From the IMG/VR virus record IMGVR_UViG_3300047440_000809, positions 40,564-104,563 of that record: 64,000 nucleotides of DNA. The stretch is one strand, 5' to 3'. The position numbers were made by a program, and so were the translations under genes. Position 1 is the first letter of the stretch, and every line of letters begins with the position of its first letter. Under the pieces are notes generated by a model that worked only from the letters and a program-made list of their open reading frames with translations, had not been told where the DNA came from and did not search any database. Below are positions 33,630-61,051 of the stretch, in pieces. This DNA comes from a virus.

Positions 33630-35714
33630 ATGGGCGACGGACCACTGCCGGGCTCCGAGGGTGGCTACGCGGGCCCTACCGTACCGGGTGGCGGTAGCGG
33701 GTCACAGGGGGCTCAGGGCACGCAAGGTGCCCAAGGCGCTCAGGGAAGCGGCGGACAAGGCGCTCAGGGCCCGCAAGGAGCTACCGGCGTCCAAGGGTCG
33801 CAGGGCGCGCAAGGATTCCAGGGCGGTGGGTTTCAAGGGGCGCAGGGCGCCACCGGCGTGCAGGGGTTCCAAGGTGCCCAGGGCTTCCAGGGCGGGGGCT
33901 TCCAAGGCGCGCAGGGCTCCACGGGCACGCAAGGTCCCGGTGGTGGCGCACAGGGCGCGCAGGGTGCGACCGGCACGCAAGGGTTCCAAGGCGCGCAGGG
34001 GTTCCAGGGTGGTGGTTTTCAGGGGGCGCAGGGCTTCCAGGGCGCTGACGGCACGCAGGGGTTCCAAGGCGCGACTGGTGCGGGTGCTCAGGGAGCGCAA
34101 GGCGCACAGGGAGCGGACGGCACTGCGGGTGCTCAGGGAGCACAAGGTGCAGCGGGTGTCGACGGTGCTCAAGGTGCCCAGGGCGCGACGGGAAACACCG
34201 GCGCCACCGGCGCGACGGGCGCGCAAGGATTCCAGGGTGCCACCGGAACGACCGGGACGCAGGGGTTCCAAGGCGCAACTGGGGTAACAGGCGCACAGGG
34301 TTCGCAGGGCGCGTCGGGCGCCGACGGTGCACAAGGAGCACAAGGTGCAACCGGTGTGACGGGAGCCCAGGGTGCACAAGGCTCGACGGGCGTGACCGGT
34401 GCGCAAGGAGCCCAAGGGGCTTCCGGTGTCGACGGAGCGCAGGGTGCACAAGGAGCCACCGGTGTGACCGGCGCTCAAGGAGCCACCGGCACCACTGGCG
34501 CTCAAGGAGCGCAAGGCGCTCAAGGCGCAACGGGAGTGACTGGAGCGCAGGGCGCACAGGGCGCGACCGGCACCGGCACGCAAGGCGCACAAGGTGGAAC
34601 TGGAGCGCAAGGTGGCACGGGCGCTCAGGGCTTCCAGGGTGGTTCGGGTGGAGGTGGTGCGAGCACGCTGGGATTCTTCGCGCTCGGCAACACCACGCAG
34701 AACACCTCCACGACGCTCGCCGGCAGCGCCATTTCGTTCAACGTCGCCGGCGGCGTGTCGATGGGCTTCTCGAACTCGTCCATCCAGGTCTCGTCGCCAC
34801 CTGTGTCGTCGCTGTCGGGCGTGAGCGGGATCGGCTTCACCACCAACGGCAGCACGATCTCCGTCGGCGGTCCACAGGTTACTGACTTCGAGCCGGAGCC
34901 ACTGCTCGCCACGACGTCATGGGCGCCGGGCGCGGGGTCCTGGTACGTCGAGCCCTTCGCGGTACCGAACGCCTTCAGCGGACAGCTCATAAACGCTGTC
35001 GCGAGCTTCGCCAACGTGGGCTCTGCCGGGATCTTCGCACCGGTCGCGTCGTCTCGAATCAACTCGGGAAGCCGATCCGCGAGCTGCATCTTCAACATGT
35101 CCGCTGCGGTGTACTCGCGTGGTGCTGGAGGCAATAGCACCCGGATCGAATCGGTGTGGTCGAACTCATTCTCGTTCGGTGGGGCGTGCTCGCTGTCTGC
35201 GGCAACGGCCGGCGCCACCACCATCACGGTCACCTACGCCGGCACGCTGTCCTACATCACCCAGATGAACTCGGGGGGCTACACGACCACGTCGTTCTCC
35301 GAGTCGGGGTCACGTACAAGCGCCGCCTCCACGATGTCCACATCGGCCGTCACCAGCGCGCTCACCGACATCTACAACCTGCTCTCGGGCCCGACGCTCG
35401 TGCCGATCCCGTTCAACACCACGCTCAACCCCGGCAACTACTACTTCGCCTTTGCGTTCAACACCAGCTCGACGTCAGCAGGGACCGACGGGCAGGTTCT
35501 CGCCATGTCGGCATTCGTGGGCATCAGCGCCCCGAATCAGTTTGCGACGAGAAACCTCGGAAAGTCTGTGAGCACATCGAACCAACCGATCTTCGCGGGA
35601 GCGGGCGTGTTCTCTGTGTCATCGGCGTCCCCACCCGTGTCCATGGCCTTTGTCGATTTGCGCTCGTACGCCGCCGCGAAGGTCTACTTCAACGTGCAGG
35701 CTTCTACGATTTGA
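33630..35714 (+). CDS. collagen-like fibre/spike protein (long G-X-Q/T repeat plus Ser/Thr-rich beta head)
   Basis: About 100 GAQ/GAT/GFQ triplets. Confidence 0.85.
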
Positions 35715-36673: not shown

Positions 36674-37401
36674 AACCCGAACTCGTCGTACAGGACTTAG
36701 GCGGTGCGCACAACGCCGACCTCGACGCCACGAGAGCGCGGCTCATTCGTGGAGGGTCGTGGAAGAACCAGCGCATCGTCGTGATCCTACCGTCGGCCGA
36801 CCTCATACCGGCGCGCGTCGCGCTCTCGCACTGGAATCTCGCGTTCCCGCCGAACAATGGCGTCGTCAGGATTCTCGCGCAGGGGATGGAGGTCGGCGAC
36901 GCCTACACGCGCGCGGTCGAGGGCGTTCTGGGCGATCCGAACTTGTCCCAGTGGGAGTACATCCTCACGATCGAGCATGACAACTGCCCGCCACCCGACG
37001 GCGTCATCAAGCTCGTCGAGCGCATGGAGGAGCACCCCGAGCTGTCGTGTGTCGGCGGGCTCTACTTCACGAAGGGGCCGGGCGGCATCGCACAGATTTG
37101 GGGCGACGCGTCCGACCCGATGGTCAACTTCAGGCCACAGCTACCGGACACGAGCGGTGGGCTGGTCGAGTGCCACGGCACGGGCATGGGCTTCAACCTG
37201 TGGCGCCTGTCGATGTTCAAGGACTCGAAGCTGCGAAGGCCGTGGTTCAAGACGCAGACGAAGGATGGCGTCGCGACGCAAGACCTGTACGCATGGAGCG
37301 ACTTTAGGAAGAACGGGTACCGCTGCGCCGTCGACTGCTCCGTCAAGGTCGGCCACTTCGACTTCAAGGGGGACTTCGGGATCCCCGAGTTCATGTGGTA
37401 G
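36670..37401 (+). CDS. GT-A fold glycosyltransferase-like protein
   Basis: ILTIEHD, GGLYFTK, GMGFNL, QDLY, VDCSVKVGH. Confidence 0.7.
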   Translation: MKPELVVQDLGGAHNADLDATRARLIRGGSWKNQRIVVILPSADLIPARVALSHWNLAFPPNNGVVRILAQGMEVGDAYTRAVEGVLGDPNLSQWEYILTIEHDNCPPPDGVIKLVERMEEHPELSCVGGLYFTKGPGGIAQIWGDASDPMVNFRPQLPDTSGGLVECHGTGMGFNLWRLSMFKDSKLRRPWFKTQTKDGVATQDLYAWSDFRKNGYRCAVDCSVKVGHFDFKGDFGIPEFMW

Positions 37402-38032: not shown

Positions 38033-39355
38033 ATGGGTGATGGACCTCTGCCCGGCGCCGAAGGCGGTGGCTTCCTAGGACCCACCGCGGTGCCGAGCGG
38101 CGGCGCGCAGGGCACGCAGGGCCCACAGGGCGCGCAAGGTTCGAGCGGAGGCCCACAGGGGGCTCAGGGCAGGCAAGGCGCACAAGGGTCGCAGGGGGCG
38201 CAGGGCGCGCGTGGCGTCCAGGGGTCACAGGGGTCGACGGGGGCCGGGACGCAAGGGGCTCAGGGCGACACCGGCGCGCAGGGGGCCCAGGGTGCCTCTG
38301 CCGGTAGCACGCTCGCGGCGCTCTACACGTTCGGGCTCGGCGACGTCCCCACCGTCGACAACCGGCTCGTGGGGGCCATCTCGAACATCTACTTCGACAC
38401 CGACGGCCGCGTGGTCATCGAGACCAACACCGGCCACGAGGGGAACACCGATCCATTCGTGCGGCTCATTCACGACGTCCTCGCCCAGGGCGAGCAGACC
38501 TTCAACAACCAGGAGATCCACTACCTCCCTGCCGCGGGGTTGAACGGGCTCGCGGCCACGACGCCGACGGGGTTCCGCACCGACTACGACCTCGTGGACT
38601 CGGGCGGCTCGACGTTCCACTTCGCGCACGAGCGCTACGAGAGTGGCAACGTGGTCATGGGCAACCCGTTCACACCTGACCCGTTCCCCGTGCCATCAGG
38701 CGCGCCGTACATCGCGCACGAGGTCTACCTGCTTCAGCCCGACGGCTCGACGGAGACGCTGCACCAGTGGAATGCTCTCGGCACGTACACGCAGAACGCC
38801 TACGTGCCGAACGGCGGCGTGCCAGAGACGCTCGCTACCATCATGACGCTCATGCACGCGAACGCGGGAGGCGGCGTGCTCCAGGTCGGCAGCGGCGTCG
38901 GATGGACCGTCAACTGGACGTCGGGGACGCTGCCCGTGCTCGGACGGCTGAACGTAATCCTCGACAACAACGGCTTCCTGACGGAGGAGGCCCATTGGCT
39001 CTTCCAGGCGCAGCGGTCCGGCGCTGGCGTCGTCGACATCGCACGGATGGACCCCAACCTGGGCATCGACAGCCTCCTCGGGTTGTTCACGTTCAGCAGT
39101 GACGGAACCGCCGCGAGCGCTGCCGCAGCCGGAGCCGCCAAGATGATCTACAACGACACGCGGAAGACGGCACAGCTCAGCGTCGACACCGGTGGCTATG
39201 TTGATCTCTTGACCGGATCTGCTGTCGCCAACGGCGGTGTGACAGTGACTTTCGGCGCCGCCACAGCGCCGGCAGGCAGCAGCGCAACGCCTACTCGGTG
39301 GCTCAGCGTGCCGGACGGCGCCGGTGGTACCTTCACAATGGCCAGCTTCAGTTGA
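38033..39355 (+). CDS. second collagen-like fibre protein (short repeat)
   Basis: Same [12 protein letters not shown] N-terminus; GAQ repeats. Confidence 0.8.
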   Translation: MGDGPLPGAEGGGFLGPTAVPSGGAQGTQGPQGAQGSSGGPQGAQGRQGAQGSQGAQGARGVQGSQGSTGAGTQGAQGDTGAQGAQGASAGSTLAALYTFGLGDVPTVDNRLVGAISNIYFDTDGRVVIETNTGHEGNTDPFVRLIHDVLAQGEQTFNNQEIHYLPAAGLNGLAATTPTGFRTDYDLVDSGGSTFHFAHERYESGNVVMGNPFTPDPFPVPSGAPYIAHEVYLLQPDGSTETLHQWNALGTYTQNAYVPNGGVPETLATIMTLMHANAGGGVLQVGSGVGWTVNWTSGTLPVLGRLNVILDNNGFLTEEAHWLFQAQRSGAGVVDIARMDPNLGIDSLLGLFTFSSDGTAASAAAAGAAKMIYNDTRKTAQLSVDTGGYVDLLTGSAVANGGVTVTFGAATAPAGSSATPTRWLSVPDGAGGTFTMASFS

Positions 39356-43433: not shown

Positions 43434-43798
43434 CAGCGCTTCGTGCCTGTAGAGAAGCCGCCGATAAAGGGGACGCCGCCGCTGACCATGGAGCCGACGT
43501 AAGACGTCATCGGGTTCGGATACATGCTTGCAGTCACGGCAGAACCAGGGCTCTGTGTGGCAGGAGCCGACACGATCAGCGCATACGCGGCCTGCGCCGC
43601 CTTCGCCTCGTCAGAGCCGAGCAGGTGATGCCCACGCAGCCACATGGCGCCCTCGTCTTCGTGCTTCAGCAGCGAGCCACCGAAGTCGATCGTGGAGAAG
43701 CCTTGCCGGTTCACCGTCTCGACGACTTCGAGAACCACGCTGTTCGGCAAGATCCGTGTGATCGGATCGTCGACGGTTACGCGCTTGGGCGCGCTCAC
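43433..43798 (-). CDS. DEGxxWxRG-family paralog
   Basis: EDEGAMWLRGHH...AKAAQAAYAL. Confidence 0.65.
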   Translation of the reverse strand: MSAPKRVTVDDPITRILPNSVVLEVVETVNRQGFSTIDFGGSLLKHEDEGAMWLRGHHLLGSDEAKAAQAAYALIVSAPATQSPGSAVTASMYPNPMTSYVGSMVSGGVPFIGGFSTGTKR

Positions 43799-45030
43799 AG
43801 CGTCACCGTCCGGGGCCCGCGGGCTACGTCCTGGCAGTCGACGATCGCCTGGGCGTGCTCGGCCAAGTACGCATAGTCGACATCGGTGTGGGCCGTCACG
43901 ATGACCACGCAGTCGTACTCGGCCACGGCGTCGAACTCCACGCTTGTCATCCCCGCGAACTGGAACACGCGATGGTCGTAGTAGCGCACGTGTGCATGCT
44001 GCTTCCGTAGCAACTCCAGAATCGTCAGTGCCGGCGACTCGCGCACGTCGTCGACGTCGGGCTTGTAGGCGACACCCATAAGCAGCACCTTGGAACCGTT
44101 CAGGGGCTTGCGTCGTGCATTCAAGACCTCCGCCACGCGCGACACCACGAACGCGGGCATCTCCCGATTGACCTCGTCGGCGAGCGCGATGAAGCGCGAC
44201 GTGTAGTGGAGCGTCTTGAGCTTCCACGCCAGGTAGAGCGGGTCGACCGGGATGCAGTGGCCCCCGAGCCCTGGGCCCGGGTAGAAGGGCATGAACCCGT
44301 AGGGCTTGGTGGCGGCCGCACGGATGACCTCCCAGACGTTGAGCCCGAGGCGATGGCACATGAGAGCCGTCTCGTTGACGAGCCCGATGTTCACGGCGCG
44401 GAACGTGTTCTCCAGGAGCTTGACCATCTCGGCCGCGTCGGTGGACGACATCGGCACCACGTAGTCGACGAATGTCGCGTAGAGCTTGATGGCCATCGTC
44501 ATACTTGCCGGCGACGCTCCCCCGAGCACCTTGGGCGTGTTCCGCACGCCGTAGGTCTTGTTGCCTGGGTCGGTGCGCTCGGGCGAGAAGGCCACGAAGA
44601 CGTCGCGGTCGAGAACGAACCCAGCGGCTTCGAGCTTGGGCACGAGCACCTCGCGCGTGAAGCCGGGGAAGGTGGTGCTCTCCAGGACAACGAGGCAGGG
44701 CGCGCGCATGTGGGCGACGACCGTGTCGAGCGCGGCGATGATGTAGGAGTTGTCCGGGTCGCGCGTCTTGGACAGCGGCGTAGGCACGCAGATGATGATG
44801 GCGTCCGCGTCGGCGAGGATGGCCGGATCGGTGCTCGCTTGAACCATGCCGCTGCCGGCGCTCAAGTCGACGCCCGGGATGTACGAGCGTCCGTAGTTGA
44901 TCTCGTCGACCTTATCCCGGTCCGTGTCGAGCACGAGCGTGGTGTGCCCTGCGTTTGCAATCTCGACGGCCAGCGGGAGCCCCACGTAGCCCGCACCGAT
45001 GACCACGACCGTGGCGACGTCGTTGGTCAT
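43795..45030 (-). CDS. wbpA: UDP-N-acetylglucosamine 6-dehydrogenase
   Basis: GAGYVGLPLA, CVPTP, ESTTFPG, FSPER, KLLENTFR, GGHCIPVDP, YKPDVDDVRESP. Confidence 0.9.
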   Translation of the reverse strand: MTNDVATVVVIGAGYVGLPLAVEIANAGHTTLVLDTDRDKVDEINYGRSYIPGVDLSAGSGMVQASTDPAILADADAIIICVPTPLSKTRDPDNSYIIAALDTVVAHMRAPCLVVLESTTFPGFTREVLVPKLEAAGFVLDRDVFVAFSPERTDPGNKTYGVRNTPKVLGGASPASMTMAIKLYATFVDYVVPMSSTDAAEMVKLLENTFRAVNIGLVNETALMCHRLGLNVWEVIRAAATKPYGFMPFYPGPGLGGHCIPVDPLYLAWKLKTLHYTSRFIALADEVNREMPAFVVSRVAEVLNARRKPLNGSKVLLMGVAYKPDVDDVRESPALTILELLRKQHAHVRYYDHRVFQFAGMTSVEFDAVAEYDCVVIVTAHTDVDYAYLAEHAQAIVDCQDVARGPRTVTL

Positions 45031-45299
45031 CTGGTCACGAGCGCTCGCGCGACCAGTAACGCCTGGACGGCTTCGGAGGCATCGTCGTGCCAGCCGCGCG
45101 TCCACGTGATGCCCTCGTCATCGACAAGGACGGTCTCGCTGTAGACGGCGCCGTTGTACCACCGGAAGATCGTGCCGGATCGAATCGGATTTCTCGTGGC
45201 CCACCCGTCTACGGTAGCCCGATGCACGTGCCCCGCGGCGCTCACGACGGTGACGTACGGCCAGTCCGTGCGCTCGTACGTCACCGCCGCGGTTGACAT
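45027..45299 (-). CDS. DEGxxWxRG-family paralog
   Basis: DDEGITWTRGWH...VQALLVARAL. Confidence 0.7.
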   Translation of the reverse strand: MSTAAVTYERTDWPYVTVVSAAGHVHRATVDGWATRNPIRSGTIFRWYNGAVYSETVLVDDEGITWTRGWHDDASEAVQALLVARALVTR

Positions 45300-49113: not shown

Positions 49114-50052
49114 ATGAAAGCTAAGAAGACCGATCGTACTGCTGCACGCACACTGGACACGGCTGTCGAAGCTCTTGGGAACCAACCCTCGAAAGCGACT
49201 GTGCGCCGTGCGCTTGGAAAGCCCATAGACGGTCCGCCCACAGCGGGCCGTCCCGGTGCGGGGGGAAAGACACGTGAGCGCACCACGATCCAGATCGCGC
49301 TACCACGTTTTGGCGTCGTGCCGCTGTACGTAACAGGTCAGCTCGGCTCACCGTTGATCATGCATCGGTGGGGCAAGAAGGCGATCCGCGAGATGTTGGG
49401 AAAGCACATGGGGCACGACATCCCGCAGGCTGACAAGCAGCCGTTCGAGGACTTCGTGGACACGCTCTATCGTGAGCCGAAGACGGGCGAGATGGCTGTG
49501 CGCTCGGTCATGTTCAAGGCTGCGATGCTCGCCGCGCTTCGTGAAACGCCGGGCGTGACACGCGCTGATGCTATCACCGGCATTTCGATTCTCGGCGAGC
49601 TTTCTCCCATCTATGGGCAACCGACCAACCGATTGGACCCAGTGAAGATCGGTCCGTGGGATGCACGGGTATCCGATCTCCGCTTCCGTGGCGAATACGC
49701 CGACTGGCTGGCCGTGCTCACGTTCCGTTACAACACGGCGGCGATTTCACTGACCGCGATTCACAACCTGCTGGCGACCGCAGGTGCACTCTATGGCGTC
49801 GGCGAGTGGCGCCCGACGCGCAACGGTGTGAACGGGCTTTTCTCTGTTGTTGAGAAGACCGAAGCCGAGAAGCTGATGAAGCGGCTCGGGCGCTGGAAGG
49901 TGGCTAATTTAACACCGGAAAATACCGGTACGATGGCGATTCTGGAAGAGTACGGTCTCGATGCCGCCACACTGGCCAAGCTCAAGACTGCCCCTCGATC
50001 CACAGTCGACCCCGCGAACGGGGGCGCAAACGGCACGAGCATTCACCCGTGA
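49114..50052 (+). CDS. RAMP/Cas7-like protein (candidate guide-RNA-binding effector)
   Basis: LYVTG..GSPLIMH, VRSVMFKAAM, RFRGEY.DW, C-terminal G-rich loop GALYGVGEWRP..NG..GLFSV; RBS AAAGGA. Confidence 0.7.
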   Translation: MKAKKTDRTAARTLDTAVEALGNQPSKATVRRALGKPIDGPPTAGRPGAGGKTRERTTIQIALPRFGVVPLYVTGQLGSPLIMHRWGKKAIREMLGKHMGHDIPQADKQPFEDFVDTLYREPKTGEMAVRSVMFKAAMLAALRETPGVTRADAITGISILGELSPIYGQPTNRLDPVKIGPWDARVSDLRFRGEYADWLAVLTFRYNTAAISLTAIHNLLATAGALYGVGEWRPTRNGVNGLFSVVEKTEAEKLMKRLGRWKVANLTPENTGTMAILEEYGLDAATLAKLKTAPRSTVDPANGGANGTSIHP

Positions 50053-50549
50053 GGGGCACCGAGCTGCTGGTGGCAAAGAAGTACCGCTGGAAATCTGGGT
50101 TCCGGCTGCGCGGCAACCCTGCACTTGTCGGACAACGCATCGAGCAGATCACGCAGCGAAGAGGCCGCTGCACCCGGGAGGACATCTACACAGACGCGCG
50201 GCAACGCGCGTCGCCCTTCCGTGCAGATCTGTATTCGAAGACGACCGATGCCATGATTCGCGAATGGCGATTGGAAAAAGCGAGTGAGATCCTCCGCGCA
50301 ATTCAAGTGGTGGAGATCGAAATGGTCGGAGGTGCCGAGACAGAAGTTGCAGCCCCACTTGTGTCGTTCATCCCTGAACGCGAGTACATGTTGACGACGC
50401 GCGTACTACACGACGTCGACCTGAGAAAGGAGCGGTTGGCGCAGATTGTTCGCGAGCTGGAGACATTTCGCTACAAGTTGCACGGCTTCAAGCTGCTCGT
50501 GGCGATGATCGATCGTGTGATTGCACGGGCGAAGAAGCTGAAGAAGTAG
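50049..50549 (+). CDS. helical partner protein of the RAMP-like gene
   Basis: GTGA coupling; YRWKSG...VG..IE...T.E.I..DAR..SP...WRL.KA..I. Confidence 0.7.
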   Translation: MRGTELLVAKKYRWKSGFRLRGNPALVGQRIEQITQRRGRCTREDIYTDARQRASPFRADLYSKTTDAMIREWRLEKASEILRAIQVVEIEMVGGAETEVAAPLVSFIPEREYMLTTRVLHDVDLRKERLAQIVRELETFRYKLHGFKLLVAMIDRVIARAKKLKK

Positions 50550-50555
50550 TTCTGT

Positions 50556-50840
50556 GGCAGGCAGGGATCGGCGTCCAAGGAACGGCATTGTGCTGTGCAG
50601 GTATAAAGCGGACCGGTTCGATTCGGCAGGCACGGCAGAATCCGGATCGATCGCATCGGGTGCAATCGGGAATGGAAGAGGTAGTTCACATGGAGCGGCA
50701 GGCAGGTTCCGGCACGGTCGTCACCTGTGTGCGTTCGTAGTAGGGAAGAGTGCGGGATGGAGCGGCAGGCTTGGCAGTGCAGTGTTCGTACATGGCGCGG
50801 ATCGGTGGCTGATCAGGTACGGTCCGGTTTTGGCCGGATA
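50556..50840 (+). ncRNA. degenerate pentamer (GGN-NN) array in ~68-nt units, candidate guide-RNA array
   Basis: GGCAGGC at 50556, 50625, 50697, 50764 and GGCCGG at 50832; 5-nt GG periodicity between them. Confidence 0.65.
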
Positions 50841-50851
50841 AATCACGCGGG

Positions 50852-50882
50852 GCGTCCAGCGCGACATCTGGGCGCAACTTTC
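50852..50882 (+). terminator. hairpin closing the array
   Basis: GCGTCCAG-cgcgacat-CTGGGCGC-aacttt. Confidence 0.4.
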
Positions 50883-50913: not shown

Positions 50914-51633
50914 ATGACCGCCCTCCAACGCAAGCGCAAGAAGCGTGCGGTCCTCCAGACCGACGACCTGAAGCGCATCAGGCAAGCCGCCAAGGAGATC
51001 GGCCCGCGCGAGCACGCCCTCATCGAGTGGCTCTACACGAACGGTGCCCGCGCCTCCGAGCCCGGTCTCGCCCGCCTCGATGACCTCGACCTCCACAACG
51101 GCACCGTGATGCTCACGCACCTCAAGGGCGGGCTCGCCGCGGAGCCGGTGCCGCTGTCGAAGACGTGCCTCGCGGCGCTCAAGAAGTGGCTGCCCCTCCA
51201 CGCGAACGGCAAGTCGGCGGCCGCCATCCACTACGTGTTCCCCGGCGAGCGCCCCATCGCCTGCTACCCCTGCGGCGGCACGAAGGTCGTCGTCGAGAAG
51301 CGGCGCAAGGGCCCCGGCGGGCTGCCGCTCACCACGTCCGTCCCCTGTCCCCACTGCCACGCGACCGGGACCCGCTGGGGCATCACGCGGCACGAGGTTA
51401 GACGGATCATCTCGACCGTGTTCACGCACGCCGGCATCCCCAAGGAGTTTCACTTCGCCCACGTGCTCCGGCACTCGGCCGTCACGCACATGCTCGACGA
51501 CGGCGCGTCCCCCGCTGCCATCCAGGAGCGCGTGGGGCACAAGGCACTAGCCACGACGTTCGGGTACGTGCACACGACCAAGAAGGCGCGCGCGATGGTG
51601 TCCAAGACGTTCGACGAGGAGGACGAGACGTGA
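50914..51633 (+). CDS. tyrosine recombinase catalytic domain with inserted Zn-ribbon
   Basis: GARASE, KGG, HVLRH, VGH, TFGY; CYPCGGT...CPHCHATG insert. Confidence 0.88.
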   Translation: MTALQRKRKKRAVLQTDDLKRIRQAAKEIGPREHALIEWLYTNGARASEPGLARLDDLDLHNGTVMLTHLKGGLAAEPVPLSKTCLAALKKWLPLHANGKSAAAIHYVFPGERPIACYPCGGTKVVVEKRRKGPGGLPLTTSVPCPHCHATGTRWGITRHEVRRIISTVFTHAGIPKEFHFAHVLRHSAVTHMLDDGASPAAIQERVGHKALATTFGYVHTTKKARAMVSKTFDEEDET

Positions 51634-59938: not shown

Positions 59939-61051
59939 GTGGACGTCCCGTTCATCGATCTGCGGCCGTACGGCGAGCTGGTGCGTAGCGGTCACTGGCA
60001 CCCCACCCGTGCGCCGTTCGACGAGGATGCCGCATACCTCCTCAACACCCGCGAGTTCATCGGCGGCGGCCCGACCACCCAGCGCTTCGAGACCGCGCTC
60101 GCCACCAAGCTCGGCGCCCAGCACGCCATCGCGGTCGCAAACGGCACCGACGCCCTGATGCTCGCGCTGCGCGCCGCCGGCATCGAGCGGGGCCACCGGG
60201 TCGCGATGCCCAACCTCACCTTCTGGGCCACCTTCGAGGCGATCGTGAACGTGGGCGCCACGCCCGTGCTGCTCGACGTCGACCCCGTCGATCTCCAGAT
60301 GGACTTCGACGAGTTCGTGCGGGCGCGCAACAACAAGCGGTTCGACGCTGCCATCCTCGTGCACCTCTACGGGTGGTGCTCGACGAAGCTCGACCAGTTC
60401 CGATCCTTCTGCCGAGACAAGCGCGTCACGCTGATCGAGGACGGCGCCCAGGCGTTCGGTGTGAAGTTCGCCGGCAAGAGCATCTTCGAGGACGCCGATG
60501 CCATCACGCTGTCCTTCCACCCGGCGAAGGTCATCGGCGGGATCGGCGACGGCGGCGCGGTCTTGACCCGGAGCGCGCGGACCGCAGGGCGGGTGCGGCT
60601 CCTAGCAAATCACGGGCGCATCGCCCACCAGGAGCACGCCGTGGTGGGGTGGAATTCGCGCATGGACGCGATCCAGGCCGCGTGGCTGCTGCGGGCGCTG
60701 GAGGTTTCTGACAAGGTGATCGATGCGCGGCGGGACATCACGCACCTCTACGGGGCGCACAGGCACGAGACGGTCCGTGGCAACGGCTACCTGGACGTGC
60801 GCCACCCCGATCACGTCGAGGCCAAAGAGGTGTTGAAGCGCCTCGCAGCCGCTGGCGTCGAGGCTCGTCAGGTCTACCCACTCACGATCGCGGACCAGCC
60901 GGGTGCGCGGCAGTATGCACTCACGATCGGGGAGCTGTCAGTGAGCCGCCACTTCGTCGAGCGCGTCGTCAACCTGCCAGTCTGGTACGGGATGACCGCC
61001 GAGGACGTGGACCGGTGCGTGGTTGCTTGGGAGAAGGCGGCGCGGGGGTGA
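59939..61051 (+). CDS. wbpE: DegT/DnrJ/EryC1/StrS PLP aminotransferase (WbpE-like)
   Basis: VPFIDL, NGTDAL, IEDGAQAFG, SFHPAKVIGGIGDGG, NSRMD. Confidence 0.82.
   Translation: MDVPFIDLRPYGELVRSGHWHPTRAPFDEDAAYLLNTREFIGGGPTTQRFETALATKLGAQHAIAVANGTDALMLALRAAGIERGHRVAMPNLTFWATFEAIVNVGATPVLLDVDPVDLQMDFDEFVRARNNKRFDAAILVHLYGWCSTKLDQFRSFCRDKRVTLIEDGAQAFGVKFAGKSIFEDADAITLSFHPAKVIGGIGDGGAVLTRSARTAGRVRLLANHGRIAHQEHAVVGWNSRMDAIQAAWLLRALEVSDKVIDARRDITHLYGAHRHETVRGNGYLDVRHPDHVEAKEVLKRLAAAGVEARQVYPLTIADQPGARQYALTIGELSVSRHFVERVVNLPVWYGMTAEDVDRCVVAWEKAARG

Follow-up and report, generated by a model that had tools for sequence, protein, structure and literature searches.

Systems of the VIPR (Viral Interference Programmable Repeat) kind, which have been described in three preprints (10.64898/2026.04.26.720920, 10.64898/2026.04.26.720927, 10.64898/2026.10.15.759431), are minimal two-gene operons, mostly of viruses, that have neither cas genes nor a CRISPR array and that lie next to a non-coding, G-rich region on the same strand with a period of five nucleotides. 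Here we describe a locus of the same layout at positions 49114–50882 of a 64,000-nt stretch of viral DNA (the window, meaning the whole stretch analysed; all positions refer to it unless stated otherwise), which corresponds to 40564–104563 of the 104,563-bp IMG/VR virus record IMGVR_UViG_3300047440_000809. The record is viral, and the virus originates from soil and rhizosphere metagenomes. The locus is very probably a VIPR locus in an uncultured soil virus of about 105 kb, carrying a vrRNA array of the staggered type, and as such it is a previously undescribed member of an already known family.

The vrRNAs of VIPR systems typically contain 9–16 YNNGG/GGYNN repeats, and at least four consecutive repeats served as the search threshold by which they were discovered (10.64898/2026.04.26.720920). 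The same preprint reports “frequently observed internal degeneracy,” admits NNNGG, YNNNG and NNNNG as variant repeats identified through Evo2 scores, and illustrates staggered arrays of “1-nt overlapping” vrRNAs (its fig. S18). In the type II system of SUSP1 (PDB 36pp), the Vipr protein is a RAMP with a loop rich in glycine (G-loop) as well as a thumb, in which residues H17, R138, D177, W178 and R179 hold G1, G2 and Y3 of each repeat (10.64898/2026.04.26.720927, section 5). To judge by its sequence, the window locus appears closest to the staggered-array form of VIPR, with an unusually degenerate array.

The predicted Vipr protein

The first gene of the pair, vipr, is an open reading frame of 312 amino acids on the plus strand (49114–50052), with an ATG start and a ribosome-binding-like AAAGGA motif ahead of it. 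An earlier note on this DNA, written from the letters alone, had called its product RAMP/Cas7-like and had compared the locus with viral VIPR-type systems, and both suggestions proved sound, as did every coordinate that it gave. When the protein was searched together with 12 relatives as a profile, a single PDB sequence matched significantly, chain D of 36pp, “SUSP1 Vipr protein” (E 2.5e-8); the match spans the thumb to the G-loop region, and a single-sequence query gives only E 0.18. In the alignment R138 of the SUSP1 thumb falls on R192, and D177, W178 and R179 of its G-loop fall on E231, W232 and R233, so the residues that read GGY are kept, with one change of D to E. H84 is invariant and lies in beta-1, outside the stretch aligned to 36pp, and would be the equivalent of H17 in SUSP1. 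Out to relatives at 37–41% identity the invariant positions are H84, R190, R192, G228, G230, E231, W232 and R233, which takes in the motif GVGEWR.

An AlphaFold2 model built on a 13-sequence alignment (pLDDT 73 overall and about 90 over much of the core) gave 50 PDB matches at E <= 0.001 in Foldseek, to Cas7-type backbone subunits such as type III-A Csm3, type VII Cas7, type I-C Cascade and gRAMP. E went down to 1.4e-5 with probability 1.0, and identities were 11–15%. The best structural matches, the class 1 Cas7/Csm3 subunits 9g9e chain D and 8yhe chain F, belong to proteins that take one subunit per fixed RNA step and flip bases with the thumb; the window locus differs from them in the step, which is 5 rather than 6 nt, and in having no CRISPR RNA repeat-spacer array and no Cas5, Cas6, Cas10 or Cas11. 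Sequence and model together identify a Vipr-family protein with RAMP architecture, in which the RRM core extends over residues ~60–247, with a thumb beta-hairpin at ~171–195 in the model and the G-loop GVGEWRP at 228–234.

At 312 residues the window Vipr is considerably longer than the SUSP1 protein (202 residues) and has an N-terminal (1–60) and a C-terminal helical (248–292) extension, both of which are common only to its close clade. The tip of the thumb is also three residues longer than in viral relatives with clean arrays. One may speculate that the extensions and the longer tip accompany altered RNA requirements. Close relatives at 47–85% identity and 298–332 amino acids are found in metagenome collections, and IMG/VR holds 477 viral relatives that are more distant. 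In PHROGs the protein falls into phrog_4652 (E 5.6e-12), whose function is unassigned there, and it has no match in Pfam, NCBIfam or PADLOC.

The accessory gene

The second gene (50049–50549, plus strand) starts with GTG and encodes 166 amino acids. Its start codon and the TGA stop of vipr overlap by 4 nt (GTGA), so that it appears to be translationally coupled to vipr. In 21 of 81 related loci the gene next after vipr encodes a homologue at 19–34% identity, and other homologues at 70–85% identity sit on contigs whose longest representatives are, in five cases, of the same size as those of close Vipr homologues; because of this synteny and these close homologues we regard the gene as a conserved vap-type accessory gene. 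The protein matches phrog_15946 (E 4e-7) and nothing in Pfam or NCBIfam. In its AlphaFold2 model (pLDDT 77) the N-terminal part is small and of alpha/beta type, and the C-terminus forms a helix of 43 residues (123–165). Foldseek found no PDB match to it at E <= 0.001, the helix-turn-helix-like rows at E > 1 being no evidence, and VIA-align returned only coiled coils, aligned to the long C-terminal helix.

The earlier note had remarked that the two genes use more A/T-ending codons than their neighbours. Third-position GC content is 0.69 in vipr and 0.71 in the vap-like gene, against 0.83 and 0.94 in the flanking genes, which confirms the pair as a compositionally distinct cassette.

The array

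A gap of 364 nt separates the vap-like gene from a tyrosine recombinase gene, and the array lies within it. Since only 7 nt lie between the end of vap and the start of the array, the two genes and the array are probably transcribed together. The heptamer GGCAGGC, which we take as the junction motif, occurs four times on the plus strand between 50556 and 50770, starting at 50556, 50625, 50697 and 50764, and a variant GGCCGG follows at 50832; these positions and the periods of 69, 72, 67 and 68 nt reproduce those of the earlier note. On the plus strand of the 104.6-kb genome the heptamer has 20 copies, near the number expected from composition, so that four copies within 210 nt form a strong cluster. 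By our own estimate, from a Poisson model with a scan correction, the chance of such a cluster is roughly 1e-4 to 1e-3.

The second signal is the pentamer periodicity. In 50550–50840 the GG dinucleotide has an autocorrelation of 15 at lag 5, against 6.0 in dinucleotide shuffles (z 4.0, reached in 0 of 1000), and of 12 against 6.0 at lag 10 (z 2.7), and its lag-5 value is higher than that of any other 290-nt segment on either strand of the window (mean about 2). Of the two peaks that the earlier note had expected, that at 5 is thus present, while that at about 68 is not significant for GG (z at most 1.6); the ~68-nt periodicity is carried by the heptamer. Within the array the longest strictly in-phase run of GGNNN has three units, and strict in-phase scoring does not find the array significant.

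Anchoring on the GGCAGGC junctions, we parsed four units. Candidate vrRNA 1 (50560–50629) consists of 14 pentamers in frame between junctions and ends in GGCAG; seven of the pentamers start with GG, two with GT and five otherwise. Units 2–4 (72, 67 and 68 nt) are made of blocks of 2–4 good pentamers broken by slips or indels. Unit 2 (50629–50701) has nine pentamers, five of them GG, followed by a tail of about 27 nt ending ATGGAGCGGCAG, and is out of frame with the next junction. Unit 3 (50701–50768) begins with pentamers starting GG, GT, GG and GG, continues with degenerate sequence and the tail of unit 2 (ATGGAGCGGCAGGC), and is likewise out of frame. Unit 4 (50768–50839) holds pentamer blocks at 50768–50787, 50794–50808 and 50816–50830 with slips of 1–2 nt between them, and has no closing junction. 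The ~25-nt tail common to units 2 and 3 includes an exact 14-nt repeat (50690–50703 and 50757–50770), and a sequence resembling it also lies within the 3′ end of vap, ahead of the first junction. When unit interiors are compared in pairs, only those of units 2 and 3 are more alike than shuffled sequences (z 3.9), through this tail, and none of the interiors is a recent copy of another. A 21-nt stretch of unit 3 (50714–50734) is 76% complementary to vipr codons ~11–18 (49146–49166), which is probably chance, there being 28 such pairs in 4 kb; rival phages are reported to carry vrRNAs directed against the early codons of vipr.

Unit 4 ends in a 7-bp hairpin (50822–50839), and an 8-bp hairpin with an 8-nt loop (50852–50875), followed by a weak T tract, may mark the end of the array transcript. 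The closing hairpin of the earlier note is thus there, although neither structure is a canonical T-tract terminator, and a terminator scan did not call that at 50852–50875. The array has no pseudoknot-type 3′ tail, in which it differs from SUSP1-type VIPR, and as a whole it does not fold more stably than shuffled sequence (z −0.64). Rfam has no family for it. Contigs of low depth from four DNA runs were identical; parts of the array recur with 0 differences in contigs of three other runs, from soil or rhizosphere, and the array is therefore not an assembly artefact. No RNA run was among those listed for the stretch.

The earlier note had seen neither cas1/cas2 nor a repeat-spacer array. Scans with PADLOC, NCBIfam and Pfam agree, giving no match to a cas or defence family at the locus, and TRF found no tandem array. 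A CRISPR remnant was rejected as an explanation, as there is no repeat-spacer array, there are no cas families and the Cas7-like fold is all that is held in common.

Arrays of relatives

For comparison we used the best 80 of the 477 IMG/VR relatives (L001–L080; 33–43% identity over residues ~55–255). Whether homologues of the protein come with adjacent pentamer arrays had been put forward as a check, and most of these 80 loci do carry GGYNN arrays on the strand of the gene: an in-phase scan yields 10–20 GGYNN units ending in GGCAG, mostly 0.1–1.5 kb downstream. In most of them GGCAGGC recurs past vipr/vap with spacings mostly of 44, 49, 54, 59, 64 or 69 nt. These follow 5n−1, as in the staggered arrays of fig. 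S18 of the discovery preprint, and each vrRNA therefore begins with the G that closes the GGCAG of the one before it. The window array shares with these relatives, and with the Mycobacterium phage Donkeykong described below, the GGCAG/GC junction (with its 1-nt overlap in the relatives), the strand of vipr and the position directly after vap. The arrays of homologues close with clear hairpin and T-run terminators.

From the relatives we took 154 distinct vrRNAs, each running from junction to junction and hence in frame by construction of the sample. They have 7–17 units, mostly 10–12, and 80% of unit starts are GG, 13% GT and 7% other; C and T predominate at position 3, and positions 4–5 are free among the four bases. 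GG is nearly invariant in the first two and the last units and falls to 0.6–0.8 in the middle of the vrRNA. In the relatives as in the window, then, unit ends are better conserved than interiors, and unit 1, with its well kept ends and degenerate middle, shows this pattern at its extreme. The window departs from the sampled vrRNAs in its units of about 68 nt, three of them broken in frame, and in the ~25-nt tail that occurs twice.

A homologue of Vipr is present in 27 Mycobacterium and 5 Gordonia phage records. In Mycobacterium phage Donkeykong (NC_051648.1) the gene of the Vipr homologue, gp49, has upstream of it four clean staggered vrRNA units (L083:2075–2320, about 36965–37210 of the phage record), each of 11–12 GGCNN pentamers with GGCAG at the end. 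Because these units fall inside the annotated gene gp48, the “hypothetical protein” coding sequence of that name is probably a mis-called RNA array. The Donkeykong VIPR locus is situated between repressor/antirepressor genes and an excisionase.

One sub-clade of relatives has a conserved leader of about 45 nt ahead of the first junction, which begins GTTAYGGCGAGAGTTCC, holds a hairpin-like part CCTCGCGCCC...GGG and ends TTCAYGGCAG (L016:6179–6223, L033:6306–6350, L040:6342–6385, L050:6273, L055:6144, L073:6171 and others); L040 has it within the array as well. The window locus does not have this leader.

Does the array still work?

The VIPR assignment is weakened at one point, which is the array itself. 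The earlier note had called it unusually degenerate, and comparison with the 154 vrRNAs bears this out. The GG fraction of unit 1 is 0.50 where the median of the relatives is 0.83 and only 2% of them are at or below 0.5; the share of its pentamers that start with neither GG nor GT is 0.36, which a single one of the 154 equals (a 1% tail). Nowhere in the window array is there a run of at least four consecutive GGYNN/YNNGG units, the number that the discovery preprint asks of a vrRNA. Frame is lost in three of the four units: of the junction spacings only the first (69) fits 5n−1, whereas 72, 67 and 68 (the last to GGCCGG) do not, so that the earlier note's idea of each ~68-nt unit as a processed guide would hold for unit 1 at most. 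A pentamer log-odds model trained on the 154 vrRNAs does not rank the array first in the genome, and nhmmer profiles of the relatives' 10-, 11-, 12- and 14-unit vrRNAs reach only E 2.9–5.3 there, although the array accounts for four of the seven matches that they have at E < 10 anywhere in the 104.6-kb genome. That GG and frame have been lost speaks for decay. So does the protein: since its GGY-reading residues are the same as in relatives with clean arrays, it should need GGY.

The Vipr/Vap pair could accordingly be genuine and the cis array a vestigial remnant of a clean staggered array, without loadable guides, the proteins being on their way out or using vrRNAs supplied in trans by other elements. 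We give this somewhat less than an even chance. It is nested within the VIPR assignment and competes only with the half of it that has the array still working. Besides the broken frames, the runs of three, the failure of clade-trained models and the GG content at the extreme tail of the relatives, it draws on the fact that no clean array exists elsewhere in the 104.6-kb genome, and “solo vrRNAs” uncoupled from vipr are documented (10.64898/2026.10.15.759431). What speaks for continued function is that both proteins are intact, vipr and vap having 70–85% identity in several relatives, that unit length stays at 67–72 nt and that four 7-nt junctions have remained perfect while the interiors between them diverged. 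The internal degeneracy and the variant repeats noted in the discovery preprint count on this side too. The perfect junctions argue for continued selection; under uniform neutral decay that took GG from ~0.8 to ~0.5 all four heptamers would, by our rough reckoning, stay intact with a chance of ~1e-3. A different resolution, which we think unlikely, is that the extended Vipr clade uses a vrRNA architecture of its own, with ~68-nt units that need GGY only at the GGCAGGC junction and in a few terminal pentamers, and with an interior that would tolerate non-G units or form a tail, as a relaxed noncontiguous code. The traits of the clade that could go with it are the ~60 extra N-terminal residues, the ~45-residue C-terminal helical domain and the three additional residues of the thumb tip. 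The array may thus be either a relaxed variant or decaying, and the odds that it still yields working guides are about even.

Two further explanations would detach the repeats from Vipr altogether. The GGCAGGC copies might be arm-type or att binding sites of the adjacent recombinase, unrelated to the RAMP gene. Phage att sites often adjoin int, and the recombinase gene (PF00589, E 1e-24) does begin 75 nt past the array region, but the heptamer follows vipr/vap at 5n−1 spacings in dozens of loci, only one of which has a recombinase homologue nearby, and that on the opposite strand. The 239-residue recombinase is moreover taken up almost wholly by its catalytic domain and could not accommodate an arm-binding domain, and no flanking inverted repeats stand out, which makes this explanation very improbable. 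Still less credible is that the region encodes protein, its G-richness coming from codon usage. An open frame of 95 codons with a GTG start does cross the array (50554–50841), but its GC content is flat over the codon positions (0.61/0.62/0.57), where the flanking genes have 0.69–0.94 at the third; the earlier note had also read the region as non-coding, and the coding reading is excluded by composition. The product has no Pfam or PHROG match, and 1.84 billion representative proteins contain one weak match (E 2.6e-5), to seven short stretches of a 544-residue protein, which is not a true homologue. A period of 5 nt, finally, is no coding signal.

Proposed mechanism and search for targets

If the VIPR assignment is right and the array is active, its transcript would be cut at GGCAG and the vrRNAs loaded into Vipr. 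By analogy with the SUSP1 system, one Vipr protomer would sit on each pentamer, sequestering GGY through the conserved H/R/E-W-R residues and presenting the NN dinucleotides. The protomers would form a filament, and this would recognise a competing mobile element by binding to its double-stranded DNA with a code that skips 1 nt, and would silence that element.

We looked for sequences that the NN patterns might address. In the virus's own genome the best matches at skips of 0–2 were no better than nulls of shuffled order, and a skip of 3 found only the array again; this agrees with the discovery preprint, in which no self-targeting is reported for VIPR (10.64898/2026.04.26.720920). Exact 1-nt-skip patterns of the two halves of unit 1 had 0 matches in IMG/VR, as had two clean control vrRNAs, so that this search had no power. 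When mismatches were allowed, a scan of the related loci and the genome gave no target for the window units. Among the relatives, a match of L049:6230 to L078:9736 may be a natural target between viruses, but it is a single match in a small database.

Neighbouring genes

The tyrosine recombinase gene downstream of the array (50914–51633, plus strand, 239 amino acids; Pfam PF00589, E 1e-24) encodes little beyond the catalytic domain. An insertion of CxxC type at residues ~111–160 of the protein resembles a zinc ribbon. Its N-terminal part matches tyrosine-type DNA invertases, and no obvious inverted repeats flank it. Elsewhere in the window, open reading frames at 33630–35714 and 38033–39355 (plus strand) match PHROGs of tail fibres and of collagen-like minor tail proteins (E 2e-57 and 2e-14), matches that collagen-like repeats may drive. 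A UDP-glucose dehydrogenase-like gene (43795–45105, minus strand) and an aminotransferase-like gene (59939–61051, plus strand) match PHROGs with E 6e-64 and 5e-37.

Implications

VIPR was described only in 2026, and the RAMPs of CRISPR have been proposed to descend from it. Every divergent member therefore helps to define what the system needs. The branch of Vipr to which the window protein belongs is abundant in environmental viruses and present in cultivable actinophages. The window locus pairs an intact GGY reader with an array that is short of half its GG and most of its frame and has kept all its junctions. It is in this sense a natural test of the extent to which repeats may degenerate before a Vipr filament no longer tolerates them, and of the GGCAG junction as a processing or nucleation signal. 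If the array is vestigial, the locus would instead record the decay of an array in a VIPR-positive virus, complementing the “solo vrRNA” phages, which have lost the proteins.

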